A stretch of DNA of 64,000 nucleotides, taken from positions 130,330-194,329 of the forward strand of contig JAGOQU010000001.1 in NCBI GenBank assembly GCA_018063165.1, written 5' to 3'. A program made the position numbers and the translations under genes. The stretch is from Minisyncoccota bacterium (GTDB lineage Bacteria > Patescibacteriota > Minisyncoccia > Phycocordibacterales > UBA5272). Each line of letters starts with the position of its first letter. The stretch's first letter is position 1. The notes below the pieces were generated by a model. The model ran no database searches, was not told the origin of the DNA, and saw only the letters and a list, made by a program, of their open reading frames with translations. Below, one piece after another: positions 10,392 to 20,151 of the stretch.

Positions 10392-10425
10392 AAAACAGCA
10401 TCTTATGTAGATGTTGTTTTTTTAT
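10392..10425 (+). terminator. Rho-independent terminator
   Basis: Hairpin AACAGCATCTtatgtAGATGTTGTT followed by a T-run. Confidence 0.5.
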
Positions 10426-10509
10426 TTAAAATTAAAAAAGGAGAGTTATTTACATACTAAACGAAATAATAAGTATAAGATTGTTGGTATTATTGATATA
10501 CTTATATGT

Positions 10510-12066
10510 ATGAAAAAAATAAGCATTATTGTATTATCGTTCTTTTTTATAACTCCTAATCTTTTTGCTTTAGGATGTGTAGATATTAAAAGTAATCTTG
10601 CTCAGACACAAGAAAATGCATCTGTTAAGTTGCTTCAGGATTTTTTATTTGAAAAAGGTTTTTTACAGGCTAAACCAAATGGTTATTTTGGTGTAGGGAC
10701 ACTTGCTTCTGTAAAAAAATATCAAAAGAGTATTAACCTTTCTCAAGTTGGAGTAGCTGGTCCTGCAACTAGAGCTGCTATAAAAAAAGAAACTTGCTCA
10801 TCTTTAGTTACTCCGCATTTACAAGCTACTAGTACAAAAAGTGTAACTATTCAAAAAAAAGATGAAATAAAAGAGAGTATAAAAATACCAGAGACTAAAA
10901 CAAAAACAATTTCTGAAGAAAATAATAATAAAAGAAGTAAAGATGTTGAGACTATTTTACTGGGTCTTTATAATGACTTTTTATACACTGGAGGTGTAAT
11001 TCCTATGCCAGTTTTAGATATTCCGAAAGAGCTCTGTGTAGTACCTCAGTCTGTTATTAATGCAAACGCTACAGCTACGATACCAGTTTTACCATGTAGT
11101 AATTTTGTAGACATAACAAGACTTTCTCCTCATCGTTTAAAGAATATTCCTCGAGATCCTAAAATAGCTACAACGAGTACTCTTACTGGATACTTTGTAA
11201 CAAGAACTAATACTAATGATATTTCTGTTATAGCAAAGAATGCAGAAAATGGTATAACGATTAAAGCAACATGTAATTTTAATAATGCATGCAAAAATAT
11301 AGAGCGTATCTCACATGTTTTTTTCGATGTTCCAAATCTTGCTTCAACTAGCAGAAGTGTTCTTATTAAAGATTCTGCATTAGTTGTACCATTTGTCCTG
11401 TATGGTAAAAATTTCACAGCCTCTAATACTTTAACGTTATCTGCTAAATATTCTAATCAAAAATATATATTAGGCACCTTTCCTTCTTCAGACGGTAAAA
11501 TTATTACATTGCAAGCAAAAGATTTATCACGTAAAGTGTCTTGTGGTAATAGTTGTATACAAGAAATTCCTTTAGGTGATTATGAAATATCATTGAGTAA
11601 CCAAGGAGGTGTAAGTGTCAGTGTGATACCTGTTTCTATAAAAGGTTATTCTATGTCAGTTGTAGATAATAGTTATTCTGTAAAACCTGATACAAAAAAT
11701 ACAAAATTTGCAACAATTACTTTTTCTGTAGATATACCTGTTACTATAAAATCGTTAACGTTGACAGCAACAAATACAGCATCAGCTCTTTCAAGTAAAG
11801 TAAGTCGTTTAGTGGTGGAAGATGTTAATGAAAGTACTATGTCTAGTCCAGCAACCGGTGTCTTAAATTTAGGTTCAAAATCTATTAGCGCTGGTCAAGT
11901 AAAAAAATATAATTTATACACTGATGTTGGCATATTAGCGTATAGTGAAGTTGGAGCTGTCAGGTATTCCGGGTATATTACTGTAACTGATTCTATTACT
12001 GATAAAACACGTTCAGCCGATATTCAGATTCCTATTAAAGACTTATTTATAAATATTTCTTATTGA
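10510..12066 (+). CDS. Secreted protein with an N-terminal peptidoglycan-binding domain and a large beta-rich C-terminal region
   Basis: Signal peptide MKKISIIVLSFFFITPNLFALG, then the PG_binding_1-like segment VKLLQDFLFEKGFLQAKPNGYFGVGTLASVKKYQK. The remainder is S/T/N-rich repeats. Start placed at the internal Met. Confidence 0.65.
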   Translation: MKKISIIVLSFFFITPNLFALGCVDIKSNLAQTQENASVKLLQDFLFEKGFLQAKPNGYFGVGTLASVKKYQKSINLSQVGVAGPATRAAIKKETCSSLVTPHLQATSTKSVTIQKKDEIKESIKIPETKTKTISEENNNKRSKDVETILLGLYNDFLYTGGVIPMPVLDIPKELCVVPQSVINANATATIPVLPCSNFVDITRLSPHRLKNIPRDPKIATTSTLTGYFVTRTNTNDISVIAKNAENGITIKATCNFNNACKNIERISHVFFDVPNLASTSRSVLIKDSALVVPFVLYGKNFTASNTLTLSAKYSNQKYILGTFPSSDGKIITLQAKDLSRKVSCGNSCIQEIPLGDYEISLSNQGGVSVSVIPVSIKGYSMSVVDNSYSVKPDTKNTKFATITFSVDIPVTIKSLTLTATNTASALSSKVSRLVVEDVNESTMSSPATGVLNLGSKSISAGQVKKYNLYTDVGILAYSEVGAVRYSGYITVTDSITDKTRSADIQIPIKDLFINISY

Positions 12067-13135: not shown

Positions 13136-13381
13136 TTAGAGTCCGTTAATATCTTCGTTGATATTAGTAATGTCAGCTTCAAAATTTTCTCCATCTATTG
13201 CATTAAGATCAGCATCTATAGAACTAGGTTCAGGTGTTACTACTTCTGGTGTTTTGACCTGCTCAGGTGTTGTTAGTACTGTTTCAGGAGATTTTTGCAT
13301 ATCTTTTTTTGAATAGTAGAAAACAACACTAATAATGATAAGGATTACTGCAACAACTGAGATGATTATTTTTTTGTTCAT
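13136..13381 (-). CDS. Small membrane-anchored acidic protein
   Basis: N-terminal TM (IISVVAVILIIISVVFYY) then an acidic P/E/T-rich tail. Confidence 0.4.
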   Translation of the reverse strand: MNKKIIISVVAVILIIISVVFYYSKKDMQKSPETVLTTPEQVKTPEVVTPEPSSIDADLNAIDGENFEADITNINEDINGL

Positions 13382-13399
13382 AGTATATATACAATAGTA

Positions 13400-14305
13400 T
13401 TATTTAATAGATGATAAATCAGTTGCTATTGATCGCAATGTTTCGTTTACTACCTTTATTGCTGTGTTTACAGATTCGATATCATTTTTGATGGCATCTC
13501 TGGTTTTTTCTGTATTAGTACGAAGAGTTGATTCGGTTGTGACGTCTATTGTATACACTTTTGTTGATTGATTTAAGATGAGAGTTCTTAAATTTGTAAT
13601 GCTTGACTCTACTTGAGAAAGCTTATTGGTTACAACAGAAACATCTTTGCCTTCTTCTGCTAGAGATGCTGATCTATCTTTAATTTTTTGAATAACCTCC
13701 TCTTGACGTGTTACTTTCTTTGAAAGAGTGTCTGTTGCTTTTTTGTTGAGTTCTTGGAATTTATCATTAATCGAAAGAGCTAGATTTTTTTTCTTTTCAT
13801 CTTTTATAACAGTAAGATTTTTCTGCAGTTCTTCTCTCTTGTTTGCTACGTTTTTTCTAGTTTCTTCTCGTCTTGCTTCAATTTTAACTTTAAAATCTGC
13901 TCTAGTTTGTTCTACTTGAAGTCTGTTTTCTTCTCGTTGTTTCTTAATATCTTCTCTTGTGGTAGAAGCATTAAGTTTCGGCTGTCCTACTCGTTCTTTT
14001 AATAATGCTCTTGTATTTGAAGCATTCATTTGTTGTACATTTTTAACAGCTTCTCTTCTTTCTGATTGTAATACATCTACATCTTCTCTTCTGTCTCCTC
14101 GCATAGTAGTGATGGTTTCTTTTGTCTCCATGCGCATAGCTTTTCTCTCTTCAATACGTGCACGTACTGGAGCGGGTGCGGTTTGAGTATTTTCTATTGC
14201 TGCTGTTGGTGATATACCAATTGTTTCTTGCGCGTATGCCAAATAAGATGCAGATAGAACGCAACTAAGTATAGATATTGTTGATACGTGTAGTATTTTT
14301 TTCAT
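13400..14305 (-). CDS. Secreted coiled-coil protein
   Basis: Signal peptide MKKILHVSTISILSCVLSASYLAYA, then K/E/R-rich heptad-like sequence throughout. Confidence 0.55.
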   Translation of the reverse strand: MKKILHVSTISILSCVLSASYLAYAQETIGISPTAAIENTQTAPAPVRARIEERKAMRMETKETITTMRGDRREDVDVLQSERREAVKNVQQMNASNTRALLKERVGQPKLNASTTREDIKKQREENRLQVEQTRADFKVKIEARREETRKNVANKREELQKNLTVIKDEKKKNLALSINDKFQELNKKATDTLSKKVTRQEEVIQKIKDRSASLAEEGKDVSVVTNKLSQVESSITNLRTLILNQSTKVYTIDVTTESTLRTNTEKTRDAIKNDIESVNTAIKVVNETLRSIATDLSSIK

Positions 14306-14395
14306 TATATGAAAGTGTATTATTTTTTTAAGTGAATAAATATAGTGTAACAAGGTTTTTGTTTAATCAAAAATAATAACGTCTTTAAACGTCTA

Positions 14396-15304
14396 TTATT
14401 TTTTTATGTTTGAAGATTGGTTATTTGTGTATTGTTTAAGTATGGCTTGTATTCCAGCTAGATTTTCTTCCCATTCAATTGTTTCATGAGATTGTAATTC
14501 TACCGTAATAGCGGGGATGTTGATTGAAGATAGCCAATCATCTGCAGCTCCTGTTATTTCGTATGCATCAAATGATTGTATTGCTGGATATCCCGATGCT
14601 TGAGAGTAGAGATTCATAAGTGTGAGCGTTTCTTGCATTATTCCATTCTGACATTGTGAAGCAAAGACACTATTAGACTGACTATGCCAAAAAATAACAG
14701 CAGTTGGCTTTTCGGTAAGCATGAAATGTTGTATTGCTTTTGTTTCCGGTTCAGAGAAGGGTGCTGATCCAGCACTTACTATGTTTGATTGCCATGTGCT
14801 TTTTGGTTTCCATTTACAATCAAAATTACGATTTAGGTCTACATTGTTAGCATTAAAACGTCCGGATGTTAAAATTTTTTTATCGTTAGATACATCCTCA
14901 CGAGTAAAACGACCTTCTTTACCTGTAACTTTATACGCACCATCAGGATTAACAGAAGGTACTATACTTATGGTTATGTTTTTTGGAATACTTGTGGGGT
15001 TATTGGTGAGATAATCAATGAAAGTATATGAAAGTAAAATACTATTCCATTCATACCCACCATGAATACCACCAACAAAAACAAGATGAGTAGGTCCATC
15101 ACCGAAAGTATATTTTTCAATAGCGCGTTTTTCTATAGAAGTACCAATAATAGTTTTAATTGGCCAGGTAATTACTTTTTCCTCTTTTTTGTTAGTAATT
15201 TCTATTACTGGTGTTTTTTCGTGAAGTTTTATATATGTTCCTAGACTAAGGATAATAAGAATAAAAACTATTGCAATATTTTTTTTGGATAAAAGTGGTT
15301 GCAT
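14396..15304 (-). CDS. M14-family zinc carboxypeptidase, membrane-anchored, catalytic residues intact
   Basis: GGIHGGYEWN (Zn His/Glu region), VDLNRNF (the Asn-Arg motif), FWHSQSN (second Zn His) and AITVELQ (catalytic Glu). The ATG at 15304-15302 overlaps the upstream paralogue's stop (TAATG). Confidence 0.7.
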   Translation of the reverse strand: MQPLLSKKNIAIVFILIILSLGTYIKLHEKTPVIEITNKKEEKVITWPIKTIIGTSIEKRAIEKYTFGDGPTHLVFVGGIHGGYEWNSILLSYTFIDYLTNNPTSIPKNITISIVPSVNPDGAYKVTGKEGRFTREDVSNDKKILTSGRFNANNVDLNRNFDCKWKPKSTWQSNIVSAGSAPFSEPETKAIQHFMLTEKPTAVIFWHSQSNSVFASQCQNGIMQETLTLMNLYSQASGYPAIQSFDAYEITGAADDWLSSINIPAITVELQSHETIEWEENLAGIQAILKQYTNNQSSNIKK

Positions 15305-16203
15305 TATTTGGTGTAATATGTGAGTAATGCTTTCACTCCTGCTATATTTTTTGCCCAATCTGTGCCGGTATGATTTGTTAATAAAATACTAATAGCTGGA
15401 ATATTATTTTTTGCAAACCAGTTCACCATATCTCCGGTTGTTGCGTAAAAATCAAAACTGTCGTATGCAGGGTATCCGGAGGCTGTAGCAAATACTTTTG
15501 TAATCGCGCTTGTTTCTGTGGATACGCCATTGTTACAACTGGATGCAAAAACACCACCAGCTGCACTGTACCAAACTACTACAGATATAGGTGTATGTGT
15601 TTCTGTATATTCTTTAATAGCTTTACTTTCCGGTTCAGAGAATGTGTTACTTCCAGCGCTTACTGTTTTATTTTGCCATACACCTTCTGATTTCCAGTTA
15701 CAATCAAAATTTCTACTTAGATCAACATTATTTCCATTGAATCTACCAGATGTAACAACACTTTCTAAGGTTGATACATCTGTTTTCAAAAATCTTCCAG
15801 TTGTTCCTACGACTTTATGTAGACCATCAGGATTCATAACAGGGATAATTGTAATCTTTAGAGTGTCTGGAATACTATTTGGGTTTGCTTTAAAATAGTC
15901 CATAAGATCGTATGCAAGTAAAACCGTGTTCCATTCATATCCACCATGAATACCTCCAATCAGTAAAAGTTCATTCGTTCCTTTTCCGTAGTGATATGCA
16001 ACAATCTCATTTCCTTCAACAGATGTACCTATAACTGTTTTGGTTTTATCAATAACAGTTTCTGTGGTAGAAGAGTGATTGTTGGTGTTCTTTATTTCTT
16101 CAGTGTCAGTCGTTAAATCTATTTTCTCTACAGGTCTATCAAGTAACATATATACACCTACACCAATGATCAGTACCAAAATCACAATAAATATATTTTT
16201 CAT
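15304..16203 (-). CDS. M14-like paralogue with substituted catalytic residues (probable pseudo-peptidase)
   Basis: Same fold and the same GGIHGGYEWN segment. However VDLSRNF has Asn replaced by Ser, VWYSAAG has the second Zn His replaced by Tyr, and AISILLT has the catalytic Glu replaced by Leu. Confidence 0.65.
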   Translation of the reverse strand: MKNIFIVILVLIIGVGVYMLLDRPVEKIDLTTDTEEIKNTNNHSSTTETVIDKTKTVIGTSVEGNEIVAYHYGKGTNELLLIGGIHGGYEWNTVLLAYDLMDYFKANPNSIPDTLKITIIPVMNPDGLHKVVGTTGRFLKTDVSTLESVVTSGRFNGNNVDLSRNFDCNWKSEGVWQNKTVSAGSNTFSEPESKAIKEYTETHTPISVVVWYSAAGGVFASSCNNGVSTETSAITKVFATASGYPAYDSFDFYATTGDMVNWFAKNNIPAISILLTNHTGTDWAKNIAGVKALLTYYTK

Positions 16204-16244
16204 ATACGTTAAGTATACACTTCTCACAGCAATTAGATATCTTC

Positions 16245-17177
16245 CTAATCAAATATATGTATGAGATAAGTATCTATTTCTCTTTGGTCAATATCGTAGA
16301 AATTAAGTGTATTCTTGTGAAGATATGTAGCCAATTCTATACCAACAAAACGCCAATGCCACGGTTCATAAACGTAGTATTTATTACCTTTTGGATAAGA
16401 AAGTACAAATCCAAAACGGTAAGCATTATTAAGAAGCCATGTATAAGCGTCTGTTTTATCAAAAGCAGTAGTAAGTTGACCATTAAGTCCTGTTGTTATA
16501 AAGTCCAGTGTTACCCCAAGTTGATGCTCAGAATATCCTTGATCAGCAGAAAAGGTGTTGGAAGTTCCAGCGCCATATTTCACTGTATATGCTGATTTGA
16601 GTGACTTTTGTTCATCAAAGGATCTATATCCAGATTTTACATAAAGAGTAACTCCATCTGCTTTAGCAGAAGTAAATAAATGTAATAAATAAGGCAAAGA
16701 CTTTGTAGAAAAATATTCTTGTCTTGTTGAACTGTAGGTATACTCAGGTGGAATAGTACTTAAATCTAATGGTTTATAGTTTTCGTTTAAAAAGTATACT
16801 TTCGAATATTTTTTTAAAAGCTCAGGGTCTATTTGAGAAAGTTTCTGCAAATCACCGACTGTACCAGATATGGAACCAACTGTTTGTGCTACGCCACCAA
16901 CTTGATTTTTTACTGATTCAATATTTTGTTGTGTGTTGTTAAGAACATCAGAAATTCCTGTTGTCTGTGTATGTAAGTCAGTGATATTTTCTGAGAGTAA
17001 CTTCGTATTTTGCATTAAAGCATGTGAAGTAGAAGACAATTCACTGTTAAGAAAAAGTATATCTTTTTTTAAACTAGATATTTGTATATATCCATACACA
17101 ACAGAACCTCCTAATACAATAAAAATAATTCCAGTTAGAAAAACATATGATGATTTTTTTGGTGTATGTTGTTGCAA
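16245..17177 (-). CDS. M15 (VanY-type) D-alanyl-D-alanine carboxypeptidase family protein
   Basis: SGYRSFDEQ...SEHQLGVTLD (H-x6-D) ...EPWHWRFVG. There is an N-terminal TM plus a coiled-coil linker. Confidence 0.75.
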   Translation of the reverse strand: MQQHTPKKSSYVFLTGIIFIVLGGSVVYGYIQISSLKKDILFLNSELSSTSHALMQNTKLLSENITDLHTQTTGISDVLNNTQQNIESVKNQVGGVAQTVGSISGTVGDLQKLSQIDPELLKKYSKVYFLNENYKPLDLSTIPPEYTYSSTRQEYFSTKSLPYLLHLFTSAKADGVTLYVKSGYRSFDEQKSLKSAYTVKYGAGTSNTFSADQGYSEHQLGVTLDFITTGLNGQLTTAFDKTDAYTWLLNNAYRFGFVLSYPKGNKYYVYEPWHWRFVGIELATYLHKNTLNFYDIDQREIDTYLIHIFD

Positions 17178-17233
17178 GATGTATATAAGTATAGCACTAA
17201 TGAGTTTATGTGTTGTTATCTTGTTGTGTGTTA

Positions 17234-17791
17234 TTAATTTCTTGTTTGCCAGAGTATTAAGTCGAGCATTTTTGTTTTTGATATTTTAGAAGTTGGATAT
17301 TCTTTGGTGAATTGTTCAACCAAATATTTACCAGTTTCTGTTTTAAGAAATAGAGAAAATTCTTTAACCAAGGTTTGATAAATTTTAAGAATTTTTACTT
17401 CTCTCTCTTTGTCATACGAGTAGGGTAGTTTTAATTTAAGATTCTTCAAAACGATACTATCTATAACAGGCATCTTTGGATCTATTGTCGCAACAAGTTT
17501 ACTTGCAAAAGAAGATTCTATTTTTCCTGTCTTCTTAAAAAGTTTCGACAGAGTATTTTTAAAAGTTACAGTATCCTTTTTACTTTTTTGAAGTAGGGAA
17601 TAAAATTCTTTTTGCCACTCTTTGTTTCTGTGGGGTGTAATTTTATAGAAGTAATTAAATTTCTTTTGGAACTCAGCATCTTTGCTTACGTCTTTCTTCA
17701 TTACTTCATTTTGAATCCACAGGTATTGATCAAGACCTTTTTTAACCTTGGGTAGAGCTTCGTGAATTTGTTCCTTTGTAAGCGATATCAT
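17234..17791 (-). CDS. Hypothetical protein
   Basis: 185 aa, K-rich, no recognisable motif. Confidence 0.45.
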   Translation of the reverse strand: MISLTKEQIHEALPKVKKGLDQYLWIQNEVMKKDVSKDAEFQKKFNYFYKITPHRNKEWQKEFYSLLQKSKKDTVTFKNTLSKLFKKTGKIESSFASKLVATIDPKMPVIDSIVLKNLKLKLPYSYDKEREVKILKIYQTLVKEFSLFLKTETGKYLVEQFTKEYPTSKISKTKMLDLILWQTRN

Positions 17792-17884
17792 TGTATATAT
17801 TTTGATTTTAACATTATTTTTTAAATATAGTTATATATTTTCAATGTGTTACTAAATACAATAATCATACTAAACAATAACAAG

Positions 17885-18133
17885 ATGTTATCCATTGAAA
17901 TTGACCTAGACGAGATAGGAATGAAAGAGAAGATAAAAGATGAGGTTAATAGATTCAAACGCTTCCAAATAGGTGTTTTAGGTGTTAAGGATAGTACCAG
18001 TGTAGGTGATGTGGATATACGAAACTATGCGAAGTATATTTTGAGAGATGGGAAAGATATTGAGAAAAGAGAGTTGTTAAGTTGTCTAAGAAGTAGGATT
18101 CTACTAAAGAATAAAGAATTGAGTTTAGTTTAA
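17885..18133 (+). CDS. Hypothetical small protein
   Basis: About 82 aa from the internal Met. No HTH recognised. Confidence 0.3.
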   Translation: MLSIEIDLDEIGMKEKIKDEVNRFKRFQIGVLGVKDSTSVGDVDIRNYAKYILRDGKDIEKRELLSCLRSRILLKNKELSLV

Positions 18134-18274: not shown

Positions 18275-19384
18275 ATGACACCTGTTAACAAAAAAACAAA
18301 ACTTCAAACAATAAAAAAGCCACTAGATTTATTTTCTGTACAGAAAAAAGAGGTAAAGAATAAGAATGCACTTAAAATGATTGATCTCTTTGCTGGCATT
18401 GGTGGCATACGACAGGGATTTGAAAGTGTTGGGTGTGAATCTGTTTTTTCATCAGAGTGGGATGCTCCCGCTCAAAAAACTTATGCTGAAAATTTTGGAG
18501 ATATTCCGTATGGTGATATAACTCAAATTGATCCTGAACAAATTCCTTCCTTTGATATTCTGTTGGCTGGATTCCCATGTCAGCCATTTTCTCAGGCAGG
18601 AAAAAAGCTTGGTTTAGCTGATACACGTGGAACACTTTTCTTTGATATAGCTAAGATAGTTAATCATCACAGACCAAGAGTTGTTTTTTTGGAGAATGTG
18701 AAGAGATTTAAAAGTCATGATGGTGGAAAAACATTTGAAACAATTAAATCAATTTTAGAGGATCTTGGTTATCAGATTCATGCTAAAGTTCTGAACGCAA
18801 GGGATTTTGGAGTTCCTCAAAACAGAGAAAGAATTTATATTATTGGATTCCTTGGAGAAGTTGATTTTTCATTTCCAGAACCATTAGGAAAAAAGACTAG
18901 ACTTGGTGATATTTTAGAAAAAAATGTAGATTCTAAGTACACTCTTTCAGACAAGCTTTGGGCAGGACACCAAAGAAGAAAGAAAGAGCACGCCGCTAAG
19001 GGGTATGGTTTTGGGTATTCTATGTTTAACGAGAAGTCAGAATATACTAGTACAATTTCTGCGCGATACTATAAAGATGGTTCGGAAATATTAATTGAGC
19101 AAGAAGGTAAAAACCCAAGAAAGCTCACACCTCGTGAAGCTGCAAGACTGCAAGGTTTTCCTGATACTTATAAACTTCCAGTAAGTGATATGCAAGTATA
19201 TAAACAGTTTGGTAATAGTGTAGCTGTGCCAGTTATTAAAGCACTTGCTAAAGAAATTGATAAAGCTCTTAAAACTTTGAAACAGAAGAAAACTTCAGAT
19301 CTTAGTAATATTGATATTGATAAAATTAAAGCGGACAGTGTTAAAACTGTTATGTTGAATCTTAAAAAAGAAGCTACTGTTTAG
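18275..19384 (+). CDS. DNA (cytosine-5)-methyltransferase
   Basis: Motif I DLFAGIGG, motif IV GFPCQPFSQAG, motif VI FLENVKRF, and the C-terminal QFGNSVAVPV. Confidence 0.95.
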   Translation: MTPVNKKTKLQTIKKPLDLFSVQKKEVKNKNALKMIDLFAGIGGIRQGFESVGCESVFSSEWDAPAQKTYAENFGDIPYGDITQIDPEQIPSFDILLAGFPCQPFSQAGKKLGLADTRGTLFFDIAKIVNHHRPRVVFLENVKRFKSHDGGKTFETIKSILEDLGYQIHAKVLNARDFGVPQNRERIYIIGFLGEVDFSFPEPLGKKTRLGDILEKNVDSKYTLSDKLWAGHQRRKKEHAAKGYGFGYSMFNEKSEYTSTISARYYKDGSEILIEQEGKNPRKLTPREAARLQGFPDTYKLPVSDMQVYKQFGNSVAVPVIKALAKEIDKALKTLKQKKTSDLSNIDIDKIKADSVKTVMLNLKKEATV

Positions 19385-20151
19385 TGGGTATCTGTAATTA
19401 GTGATTCCCAATAGTTATTATTAGCTCTCCATTGTGAATATGGTCTTGGGTTACCTGCATACATTCCACTATCAAAAAAAATTAAACCTTTCTTTACTCC
19501 CGTTATCCAAGTTTTAAAATTTATTGGATCACCAAAGACAATACTTGTGTAAACACCTTCAGAATTTTTGTTGCATTTAAACCAGCCAAGTTTATTAAAC
19601 TTCTTCTCAACTCTTTTCTTCATTAACTCAGCACTCCAGCTTGCAATTATCAATCTATTTTGTTGAAGATCTTTAGGAACTATATTATTTTTATCTAGTC
19701 TTTTGTCTTTTTCAAATGAATATATCGTGAGAATGTTATCGTATTCATCAATTTCAAGTTTCTGTCCAAAATCATTATATGTATTAATCTTAGGACAAGG
19801 TTTTCCAGACCAAGAGTAACGGTTTTCTTTTTCTACGTTAGGTGCTCCAAAAAATTGAAGAAACTGATCTCTCTTTAAAATATTTACTTTCTTTTTGAAC
19901 AATGAGTAGTCAGGCGACCAGTCACCAAAAGTGGTTTTACTTGCTGTGTGGTTTTTCATTTCAAAACCATCTATATCAGGCGCATTATTTCCATTATGTG
20001 CAATTCCCATTTGTGTTTCAAGCCAATGACCATCTTTACCGTCATGTCCAGCATTTGAAGAAGTGGTGTCAGATTTTTTACCTCTAACTTTTTTATCAAA
20101 TAGAGTGATTATCTTTCTTTTTGTTTCCTCACGATTTTGAGTATTTGTCAT
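19381..20151 (-). CDS. Putative type II restriction endonuclease, MutH/Sau3AI-like PD-(D/E)xK fold
   Basis: Convergent with the methylase and overlapping its stop by 4 bp. The segment HWLETQMGIAHNGNNAPDIDGFEMKNHT resembles the MutH catalytic region [26 protein letters not shown] (PD...ExK). Confidence 0.5.
   Translation of the reverse strand: MTNTQNREETKRKIITLFDKKVRGKKSDTTSSNAGHDGKDGHWLETQMGIAHNGNNAPDIDGFEMKNHTASKTTFGDWSPDYSLFKKKVNILKRDQFLQFFGAPNVEKENRYSWSGKPCPKINTYNDFGQKLEIDEYDNILTIYSFEKDKRLDKNNIVPKDLQQNRLIIASWSAELMKKRVEKKFNKLGWFKCNKNSEGVYTSIVFGDPINFKTWITGVKKGLIFFDSGMYAGNPRPYSQWRANNNYWESLITDTH

Follow-up and report, generated by a model that had tools for sequence, protein, structure and literature searches.

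Why would a bacterium keep, directly ahead of the gene for an apparently intact peptidase, a second copy of that gene that has lost residues on which catalysis depends? The question is raised by two adjacent minus-strand genes in a stretch of 64,000 nt from a Minisyncoccota bacterium (contig JAGOQU010000001.1, positions 130,330-194,329, forward strand; hereafter the window, within which all positions are counted). Both encode membrane-anchored proteins of the M14 carboxypeptidase family. From its open reading frame (ORF) and residue mapping, the upstream gene, which we call UP (15304-16203), encodes a pseudo-carboxypeptidase of 299 aa. The downstream gene, DN (14396-15304), encodes a carboxypeptidase of 302 aa with the full catalytic set, as read from its ORF, Pfam PF00246, an AlphaFold2 (AF2) model, Foldseek and profile alignment. 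The original prediction, made from the letters of the window, took the two for an enzyme paired with a pseudo-enzyme and not for an enzyme beside a decaying duplicate. Our comparison with relatives strongly supports a conserved pair in which the dead copy is, to judge by its sequence, a working non-enzymatic partner or sensor.

That the two are membrane-anchored M14 paralogues, as predicted, is borne out by their alignment, which shows 46% identity over 297 aa (E 2e-103) and a single gap, an 11-residue deletion in the linker that follows the N-terminal membrane helix. The gene starts were revised. The longest ORFs, adopted in the original prediction, open at 16227 (a GTG, for UP) and 15358 (for DN); the likely true starts are ATG 16203 for UP and the ATG at 15304-15302 for DN, which ends at 14396. 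Read from ATG 16203, UP is identical to an NCBI protein from a Candidatus Pacebacteria metagenome-assembled genome (MAG; P0001).

To locate the catalytic positions, given here in carboxypeptidase A (CPA) numbering, we used HMMER to align DN itself, and a profile built from 121 DN-clade sequences, with the solved carboxypeptidase B (CPB), carboxypeptidase T (CPT) and MpaA. IHGGYEW falls on GIHA-REW, which places His69 and Glu72 with one additional residue between the His and the Glu. VDLNRNF falls on TDGNRNF (Asn144/Arg145), FWHSQ on LHSYG and FHTYS (His196), AYEITGAADDW on LYAAAGGSDDW (Tyr248 to Trp257), and ITVEL on ITMEL of CPB and FTFEM of CPT (Glu270). The motifs originally assigned to the Asn-Arg pair, the second zinc His and the catalytic Glu thus hold up against solved M14 enzymes. 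DN keeps all three zinc ligands, His69 (its residue His81), Glu72 (Glu85) and His196 (His207), spaced as HGGYE rather than HxxE, together with Asn144 (Asn158), Arg145 (Arg159) and the general base Glu270 (Glu269). It also has Tyr248, and Asp at 255, the specificity position, acidic as in CPB.

UP differs at exactly the three catalytic positions named at the outset, 144, 196 and 270. Its equivalents are Ser163 for Asn144 (codon 15715-15717), Tyr212 for His196 (15568-15570) and Leu274 for Glu270 (15382-15384), each codon checked by hand against the sequence, while His86 (His69), Glu90 (Glu72), Arg164 (Arg145) and Tyr253 (Tyr248) are in place. UP therefore lacks one zinc ligand and the general base that a competent M14 enzyme requires. 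The carboxylate clamp at 144/145/248 reads Asn, Arg, Tyr in DN and Ser, Arg, Tyr in the UP of the window.

Loss of catalytic residues has not been accompanied by loss of the fold. Against PF00246, the family suggested for checking, UP scores 66.3 bits and DN 91.8 bits, both above the gathering score of 21.6. Both are modelled as confident M14 folds by AF2 (predicted local distance difference test, pLDDT, 85.7 for UP and 92.7 for DN), and the carboxypeptidase A-like alpha/beta fold is present. In Foldseek the DN model matches CPB, CPA, CPT, TAFI and MpaA at E about 1e-16; the closest solved structures to either protein, MpaA among them, are 20-24% identical. The UP model is of low confidence just in the linker (residues 22-51) and around residues 251-260, and its layout is a signal-anchor helix at about 1-21, that linker, and an M14 domain at about 52-299. 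Each protein has one N-terminal hydrophobic segment, modelled as a helix, and no obvious signal-peptidase site was seen in UP or DN. We therefore read both as signal-anchored with the M14 domain outside the cell. Two cysteines invariant in both clades are consistent with an extracytoplasmic location and may form a disulfide.

The whole subfamily, active and dead members alike, carries HGGYEW in place of the canonical M14 HxxEW, with the additional residue between zinc His and Glu, and has an invariant His four residues past position 270.

Whether UP is a functional protein or a relic is best judged from its relatives. A scan of one genome per species (GTDB) gave at least 539 confirmed relatives, a figure that is not a genome count because both paralogues match the search patterns. 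Conservation was counted in the best 80 loci of these, all from Patescibacteria MAGs, whose labels include Paceibacteria, Zambryskibacteria, Yonathbacteria, Kaiserbacteria, Taylorbacteria, Nomurabacteria and Jorgensenbacteria. A UP-type gene stands directly before a DN-type gene on the same strand at 78 of these loci; in the remaining two the contig ends there. No frameshifted or truncated UP copy was found among the 80, contig ends excepted.

The substitutions recur with the gene. Of the 80 UP-clade sequences, 76 have Tyr at position 196, three Phe and one Asp; at position 270, 78 have Leu, one Ile and one Phe. An ordinary active enzyme in the upstream position, a finding that would have told against a pseudo-enzyme, was thus seen at none of the 80 loci. 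Glu72 is lost in 18 and kept in 62. By contrast with the losses at 196 and 270, the Asn144Ser change that had been listed beside them does not recur as a rule: 69 of 80 sequences keep Asn and 10 have Ser, which makes it a minority variant and not a hallmark. His69, Arg145 and the Arg of the SGRF motif are kept in all 80, and Tyr248 in 79. In the DN clade each catalytic residue is kept in 76-78 of 79 sequences, with Glu270 a Glu in 76/76 of those aligned.

More divergent representatives extend the pattern. Position 196 drifts among Y, F, E, G, D, L and V, and in place of Glu72 one finds S, A, G, T or D; Leu270, Asn144 and Arg145, by contrast, are retained. Drift at 196 and 72 beside retention of 144 and 145 is what one would expect if metal binding were dispensable and the carboxylate-binding part of the pocket were not; retention of Arg145, Tyr248 and His69 likewise implies a pocket that has been remodelled, not destroyed. 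Mean pairwise identity over the domain is 68.7% for UP against 65.0% for DN, and UP is the better-conserved member in 81.5% of genome pairs. These values indicate purifying selection on UP, which is constrained no less than the enzyme beside it.

Such conservation leaves almost no room for the idea that UP is a decaying duplicate or that its substitutions are assembly or sequencing errors, for which we find nothing beyond the loss of catalytic residues in this one window. The frame is intact, the same substitutions occur in 80 species-level genomes from independent assemblies, and UP is conserved above DN; on these grounds we regard decay and sequencing error as refuted. With all 78 informative loci paired and UP intact and slower-evolving than DN, the enzyme and pseudo-enzyme pair proposed at the outset is sustained. 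The correlation of UP and DN identities (mirror-tree, r = 0.46) was not used, being uninterpretable without phylogenetic control.

The dead-then-active arrangement is not confined to Patescibacteria. Sequence searches for UP and DN hit 3428 and 6724 clusters, respectively. Among 1.84 billion cluster representatives searched, 276 are relatives at E < 1e-30, and they include, besides the UP-type clade, a second dead M14 clade, whose named sources are Chloroflexi, Anaerolineae, Promineifilaceae and Ardenticatenaceae. Among 117 homologues of one ectodomain of this clade, Leu270 occurs in 103, Ala72 in 92 and Glu or Gln at 196 in 93, and Asn144 and Arg145 are kept in 117/117. An intact M14 gene is adjacent in 7 of 8 sampled loci, and in 6 of the 7 the dead gene lies upstream on the same strand. 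When 156 members of the family are placed in a neighbour-joining tree, the 29 UP-type dead tips form one monophyletic clade and the 16 DN tips another; the deep branches of this tree are very short and do not settle whether UP and DN are sisters or whether the two dead clades share an origin.

Many members of the second clade have an N-terminal zinc ribbon, and in its fusion proteins the dead M14 domain is C-terminal, beyond one membrane helix, with Ser/Thr kinases (P0384, P0390, P0387), an nSTAND1 NTPase (P0362) or a TIR protein (P0376) as partners. The dead domain thus occupies the usual sensor position of signalling proteins.

Individual loci illustrate the variety. The kinase fusions lie on GC-rich, Chloroflexota-like metagenome contigs (L081, 4001-6439 and 6447-7628; L086, 4001-6586 and 6588-7691; L088, 2039-3982). 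Their dead domains have E72A/V and E270L with N144 and R145 kept; two of the three have H196E/L and P0387 keeps His196. An intact M14 gene adjoins two of the three, and the dead M14 domain in them looks like an undescribed extracellular sensor domain of bacterial receptor kinases. L084 (1850-7968) has, in succession, a CHAT-SIR2_2 gene, a gene for an nSTAND1 NTPase that ends, past a membrane helix, in a dead M14 domain, and an intact LysM-M14 gene, a set that resembles a conflict or defence system with a wall-peptide sensor. At L089 (306-2790), on a contig of low GC (39%), a TIR protein has a dead M14 domain at its C-terminus, and its gene shares 11 nt with the start of an intact M14 gene whose product is membrane-anchored. 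The common architecture in Chloroflexota MAGs is zinc ribbon, membrane helix and dead M14 domain, followed by an intact M14 gene (L090, 3501-5739; L091, 2036-5589; L092, 3501-5754); neighbouring genes also have N-terminal zinc ribbons, and L091 holds two dead copies in tandem before the active gene.

In the window, the UP stop (TAA, 15306-15304) and the DN start (ATG, 15304-15302) have one base in common and read TAATG (15302-15306), as originally described. The same TAATG is found at 45 of 78 orthologous junctions and TAAATG at five; 50 of the 78 have an overlap or a zero gap, and 75 have a gap of at most 22 nt. From the overlap it had been concluded that the two proteins are expressed in a coupled 1:1 ratio. 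Co-translation is supported by the overlap; a 1:1 ratio does not follow from it. As evidence for coupling, the missing Shine-Dalgarno sequence before DN (76 of 78 loci) was rejected, since some 83-92% of long ORFs also lack one.

A putative promoter lies very close to the UP start. A -10-like hexamer, TATACT (16212-16217, minus strand), ends 8 nt before the UP ATG at 16203 and has TG immediately 5' of it. An extended -10 (TGnTAnnnT) ending 6-9 nt before the UP ATG is found at 54 of 78 orthologous loci; as background, 28% of the long ORFs in the window have some such -10 motif in the 45 nt before them. This suggests that UP and DN are transcribed as a leaderless or near-leaderless bicistronic mRNA from a promoter of their own, also at loci with a VanY gene immediately before the pair. 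A consensus scan of 13300-17900 for terminators and promoters gave counts at shuffle level; it included a 10-of-12 promoter match at 14331-14304, before the next downstream gene.

More generally, few ORFs have a Shine-Dalgarno-like motif before them (3 of the 36 long ones in the window, 17% for the related loci L001-L080), and in many genes a -10-like element lies about 10 nt or less from the start codon. Leaderless mRNAs may therefore be frequent in these Patescibacteria.

What might the pair act on? Next to it, at 16245-17177, is a gene for a membrane-anchored VanY/LdcB-like M15 protein, a putative D-Ala carboxypeptidase that could be a pathway partner. Its membership of the domain family is clear (Pfam VanY, 116.8 bits, cut-off 25). 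Among NCBIfam models, all below their cut-offs, the best is LdcB at 74.8 bits (cut-off 275), with VanY types at 61-68 (cut-offs 400-425), and a hydrophobic segment spans residues 9-27. The original prediction noted this peptidase but had it follow the pair; since it too is on the minus strand, it lies upstream of the pair as transcribed, 41 nt from the UP start. A VanY-type gene is found in the flank of about 25 of the 80 loci (23 by neighbourhood clustering), usually directly upstream. Clustering of the neighbourhoods of all 80 found nothing else conserved except a membrane protein of MliC-like appearance. Active M14 relatives point the same way as the neighbour: one carries M23 and LysM domains in the same protein, another LysM alone. 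UP and DN are not MpaA orthologues, since the MpaA equivalog model (NCBIfam NF007897, cut-off 157) gives far lower scores of 33.2 bits for UP and 41.4 for DN and aligns just with the C-terminal half.

In carboxypeptidase B, position 255 determines specificity for basic residues. Of 77 DN orthologues, 76 have Glu or Asp there; UP never has an acidic residue at this position (V, T, P, A). The UP specificity loop, F-Y-x-x-T-G-D-M-x-N-W, is more conserved than its DN counterpart; being well conserved and different from that of DN, it implies a pocket both remodelled and constrained. Structural kinship with MpaA, the VanY/LdcB-type neighbour, the M23 and LysM fusions and the acidic 255 of DN together make peptidoglycan stem peptides the most likely substrate.

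The membrane protein found by clustering is of about 305 aa and is encoded directly after the DN-type gene in 20 of 80 loci (for example L006, 3438-4355); it is absent from the window, and its N-terminal part appears MliC-like (a lysozyme inhibitor), a judgement of motifs by eye. Of the genes that flank the pair in the window, 13400-14353 (minus strand), downstream of DN, encodes a secreted coiled-coil protein of 317 aa that matches no family and is without counterpart in the 80 loci, and 10411-12066 (plus strand) a 551-aa protein whose residues 65-136 weakly match the SleB cortex-lytic enzyme model, far below the cut-off. A cytosine-5 DNA methyltransferase-like gene, judged from its translation, lies at 18275-19384 (plus strand) and is convergent, with a 4-nt overlap, with a gene for a 256-aa protein at 19381-20151 (minus strand); the two probably form a restriction-modification pair.

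We propose, and think it rather probable, that UP and DN are expressed together as a membrane-anchored pseudoenzyme-enzyme module that processes peptides outside the cytoplasm, the stem peptides of peptidoglycan being the most likely ones. The two genes would be co-transcribed, probably from a promoter so near the UP start that the mRNA is leaderless, and DN would be translated by ribosomes that finish UP at the TAATG overlap. Both proteins would be anchored at the external surface of the cell membrane by an uncleaved N-terminal helix. There, DN is predicted to act on a stem peptide that has already been trimmed and to release its C-terminal residue where this is diamino or basic (for example Lys, Orn or meso-DAP), as fits its zinc ligands, Glu270, the Asn144/Arg145/Tyr248 clamp and the acidic 255. 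This step would follow removal of D-Ala by the neighbouring VanY/LdcB-type enzyme. UP, for its part, most likely binds a peptide ligand or DN itself without cutting and thereby would position, regulate or report on DN, a regulatory or scaffolding role. Fold, residue states, conservation, gene order and the fusions of relatives are direct observations; a UP-DN complex, the substrate, the way regulation runs and the leaderless transcript are inferences.

Several observations weigh against this proposal. The VanY gene adjoins the pair in only about 25 of the 80 genomes. Lacking an acidic 255 and having a different specificity loop, UP may not bind the ligand of DN at all. The additional residue between His69 and Glu72 is unusual for M14, and we know of no characterised member of the HGGYEW subfamily, so that for DN both activity and substrate are predictions. 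As for expression, the promoter is putative, a match to consensus; overlaps of one and four bases are common in compact genomes; and the absence of a Shine-Dalgarno sequence before DN is uninformative because such motifs are rare across these genomes.

The same data can be arranged differently. UP could be a free-standing, non-catalytic binder of peptides or muropeptides (a receptor, a substrate shield or a wall anchor) that serves the same pathway as DN, forms no complex with it and is paired with it for co-expression. A retained clamp (R145 in 80/80, Y248 in 79/80, N144 in 69/80), a specificity loop remodelled yet highly conserved, and the related dead domains on kinases, an STAND NTPase and a TIR protein, the usual place of a ligand sensor, would all suit such a binder. 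However, strict dead-then-active adjacency in two phyla and a conserved overlap exceed what co-expression of a pathway usually needs, and a cytoplasmic tail of two residues leaves UP no obvious signal output, so that we hold this version to be unlikely, if still the strongest competitor to the module. Less probable again is that UP is a dedicated inhibitor or chaperone that acts like a trans-acting pro-domain until DN is correctly placed. Such a role would suit two proteins co-translated from one mRNA with UP made first, and wall peptidases, which are hazardous if uncontrolled; the Csd2 C-terminal tail offers a parallel, being reported to sit in the Csd1 substrate groove in the crystal (PMC5053510). 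Yet UP has no sequence feature specific to inhibition, and the fusions of dead domains to signalling proteins fit sensing better.

It is very improbable, finally, that UP remains an enzyme with a non-canonical mechanism in which Tyr212 or another residue replaces the lost ligand and base. His69 is invariant, Glu72 persists in 62 of 80 sequences, and the His four residues past 270 is invariant in both clades, as such an enzyme might require. But that His is common to the active clade and so is not compensatory, a hydrophobic Leu270 in 78 of 80 leaves no general base, and drift at 196 (Y, F, D, E, G, L, V) and at 72 speaks against any selection for metal binding.

The co-expressed module we favour may itself be one branch of something older. 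It is tempting to speculate that the dead M14 domain is an ancient extracytoplasmic wall-peptide receptor of Patescibacteria and Chloroflexota, always paired with an active M14 paralogue, that became a sensor in Chloroflexota and a heterodimer subunit in Patescibacteria. We offer this as a tentative idea, possible and distinctly less likely than the module alone. The dead domain would bind, for example, the substrate or product of its active paralogue. In Chloroflexota-like genomes one membrane helix would link it to Ser/Thr kinases, STAND NTPases, TIR domains or zinc ribbons, and the Patescibacteria form, which has no cytoplasmic domain, would be the targeting or regulatory subunit of a heterodimeric stem-peptide carboxypeptidase.

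Pairing of a pseudoenzyme with an enzyme is familiar in itself. As far as we have checked, the novelty lies in the family, M14, in how widely the pair is conserved and in the connection with sensor architectures. In its logic the pair most resembles Csd1-Csd2 of H. pylori, an M23/LytM peptidoglycan endopeptidase and its metal-free inactive paralogue, crystallised as a heterodimer and reported to work together (PMC5053510). Like UP and DN, these are paralogues of metallopeptidase fold that act on the wall, but they belong to M23 and not M14, and their complex is established in a crystal, whereas a UP-DN complex is a prediction. The UP-DN pair occurs, for its part, in hundreds of Patescibacteria genomes and recurs in Chloroflexota-like ones. 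Degenerate metallopeptidase domains also regulate or complete an active hydrolase in the LytM factors (EnvC, NlpD, DipM) and in MPP alpha/beta (M16), a similarity of concept. Those belong to other families, and what the LytM factors activate is not a paralogue of theirs but amidases with an unrelated fold.

Within M14, pseudopeptidases are known from eukaryotes: AEBP1/ACLP, CPXM1, CPXM2, domain III of carboxypeptidase D (CPD-III) and yeast Ecm14 (PMC11266112). The same positions are substituted in them as in UP (AEBP1 N196 and Y270; CPD-III A72, D196 and Y270; Ecm14 K270; PMC11266112), and their roles are non-catalytic and extracellular, that of Ecm14 being linked to the cell wall. Unlike UP, none is an obligate neighbour of an active paralogue, and most lack the Arg145 that UP keeps. 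In the 2024 review of inactive metallopeptidases that names these cases, every M14 pseudopeptidase is eukaryotic and none bacterial (PMC11266112), and no description of a bacterial M14 pseudopeptidase or of the UP-DN pair turned up in the literature searched, which misses most subscription journals. Among active M14 enzymes, the murein tripeptide amidase MpaA and the DL-carboxypeptidases Csd4/Pgp1 are peptidoglycan peptidases, only about 20-23% identical to UP and DN, which differ from them in being membrane-anchored, in the HGGYEW motif with its additional residue and in forming a dead and active pair. The kinase-fused relatives, and only these, are akin to the PASTA Ser/Thr kinases PknB, PrkC and StkP in joining a Hanks-type kinase through one helix to an outer, wall-related domain. 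PASTA domains bind muropeptides; in the relatives the outer domain is instead a dead M14, a predicted sensor, and the UP of the window has no kinase.

Safe remodelling of the bacterial wall depends centrally on pseudoenzymes that control its hydrolases, the LytM factors and Csd2 among them, and UP-DN would add a bacterial example to the M14 pseudopeptidases. The pair is widespread in the Patescibacteria, which are mostly uncultured and whose wall biology is almost unstudied, and a non-enzyme conserved above its enzyme partner in reduced genomes is likely to have a function worth finding. Beyond this group, the related dead domain, fused as it is to kinases, an STAND NTPase and a TIR protein, may be an extracellular sensor domain that has so far escaped recognition. 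If the receptor idea is true, the dead M14 domain would represent a new class of wall-status sensor, comparable to the PASTA domains.

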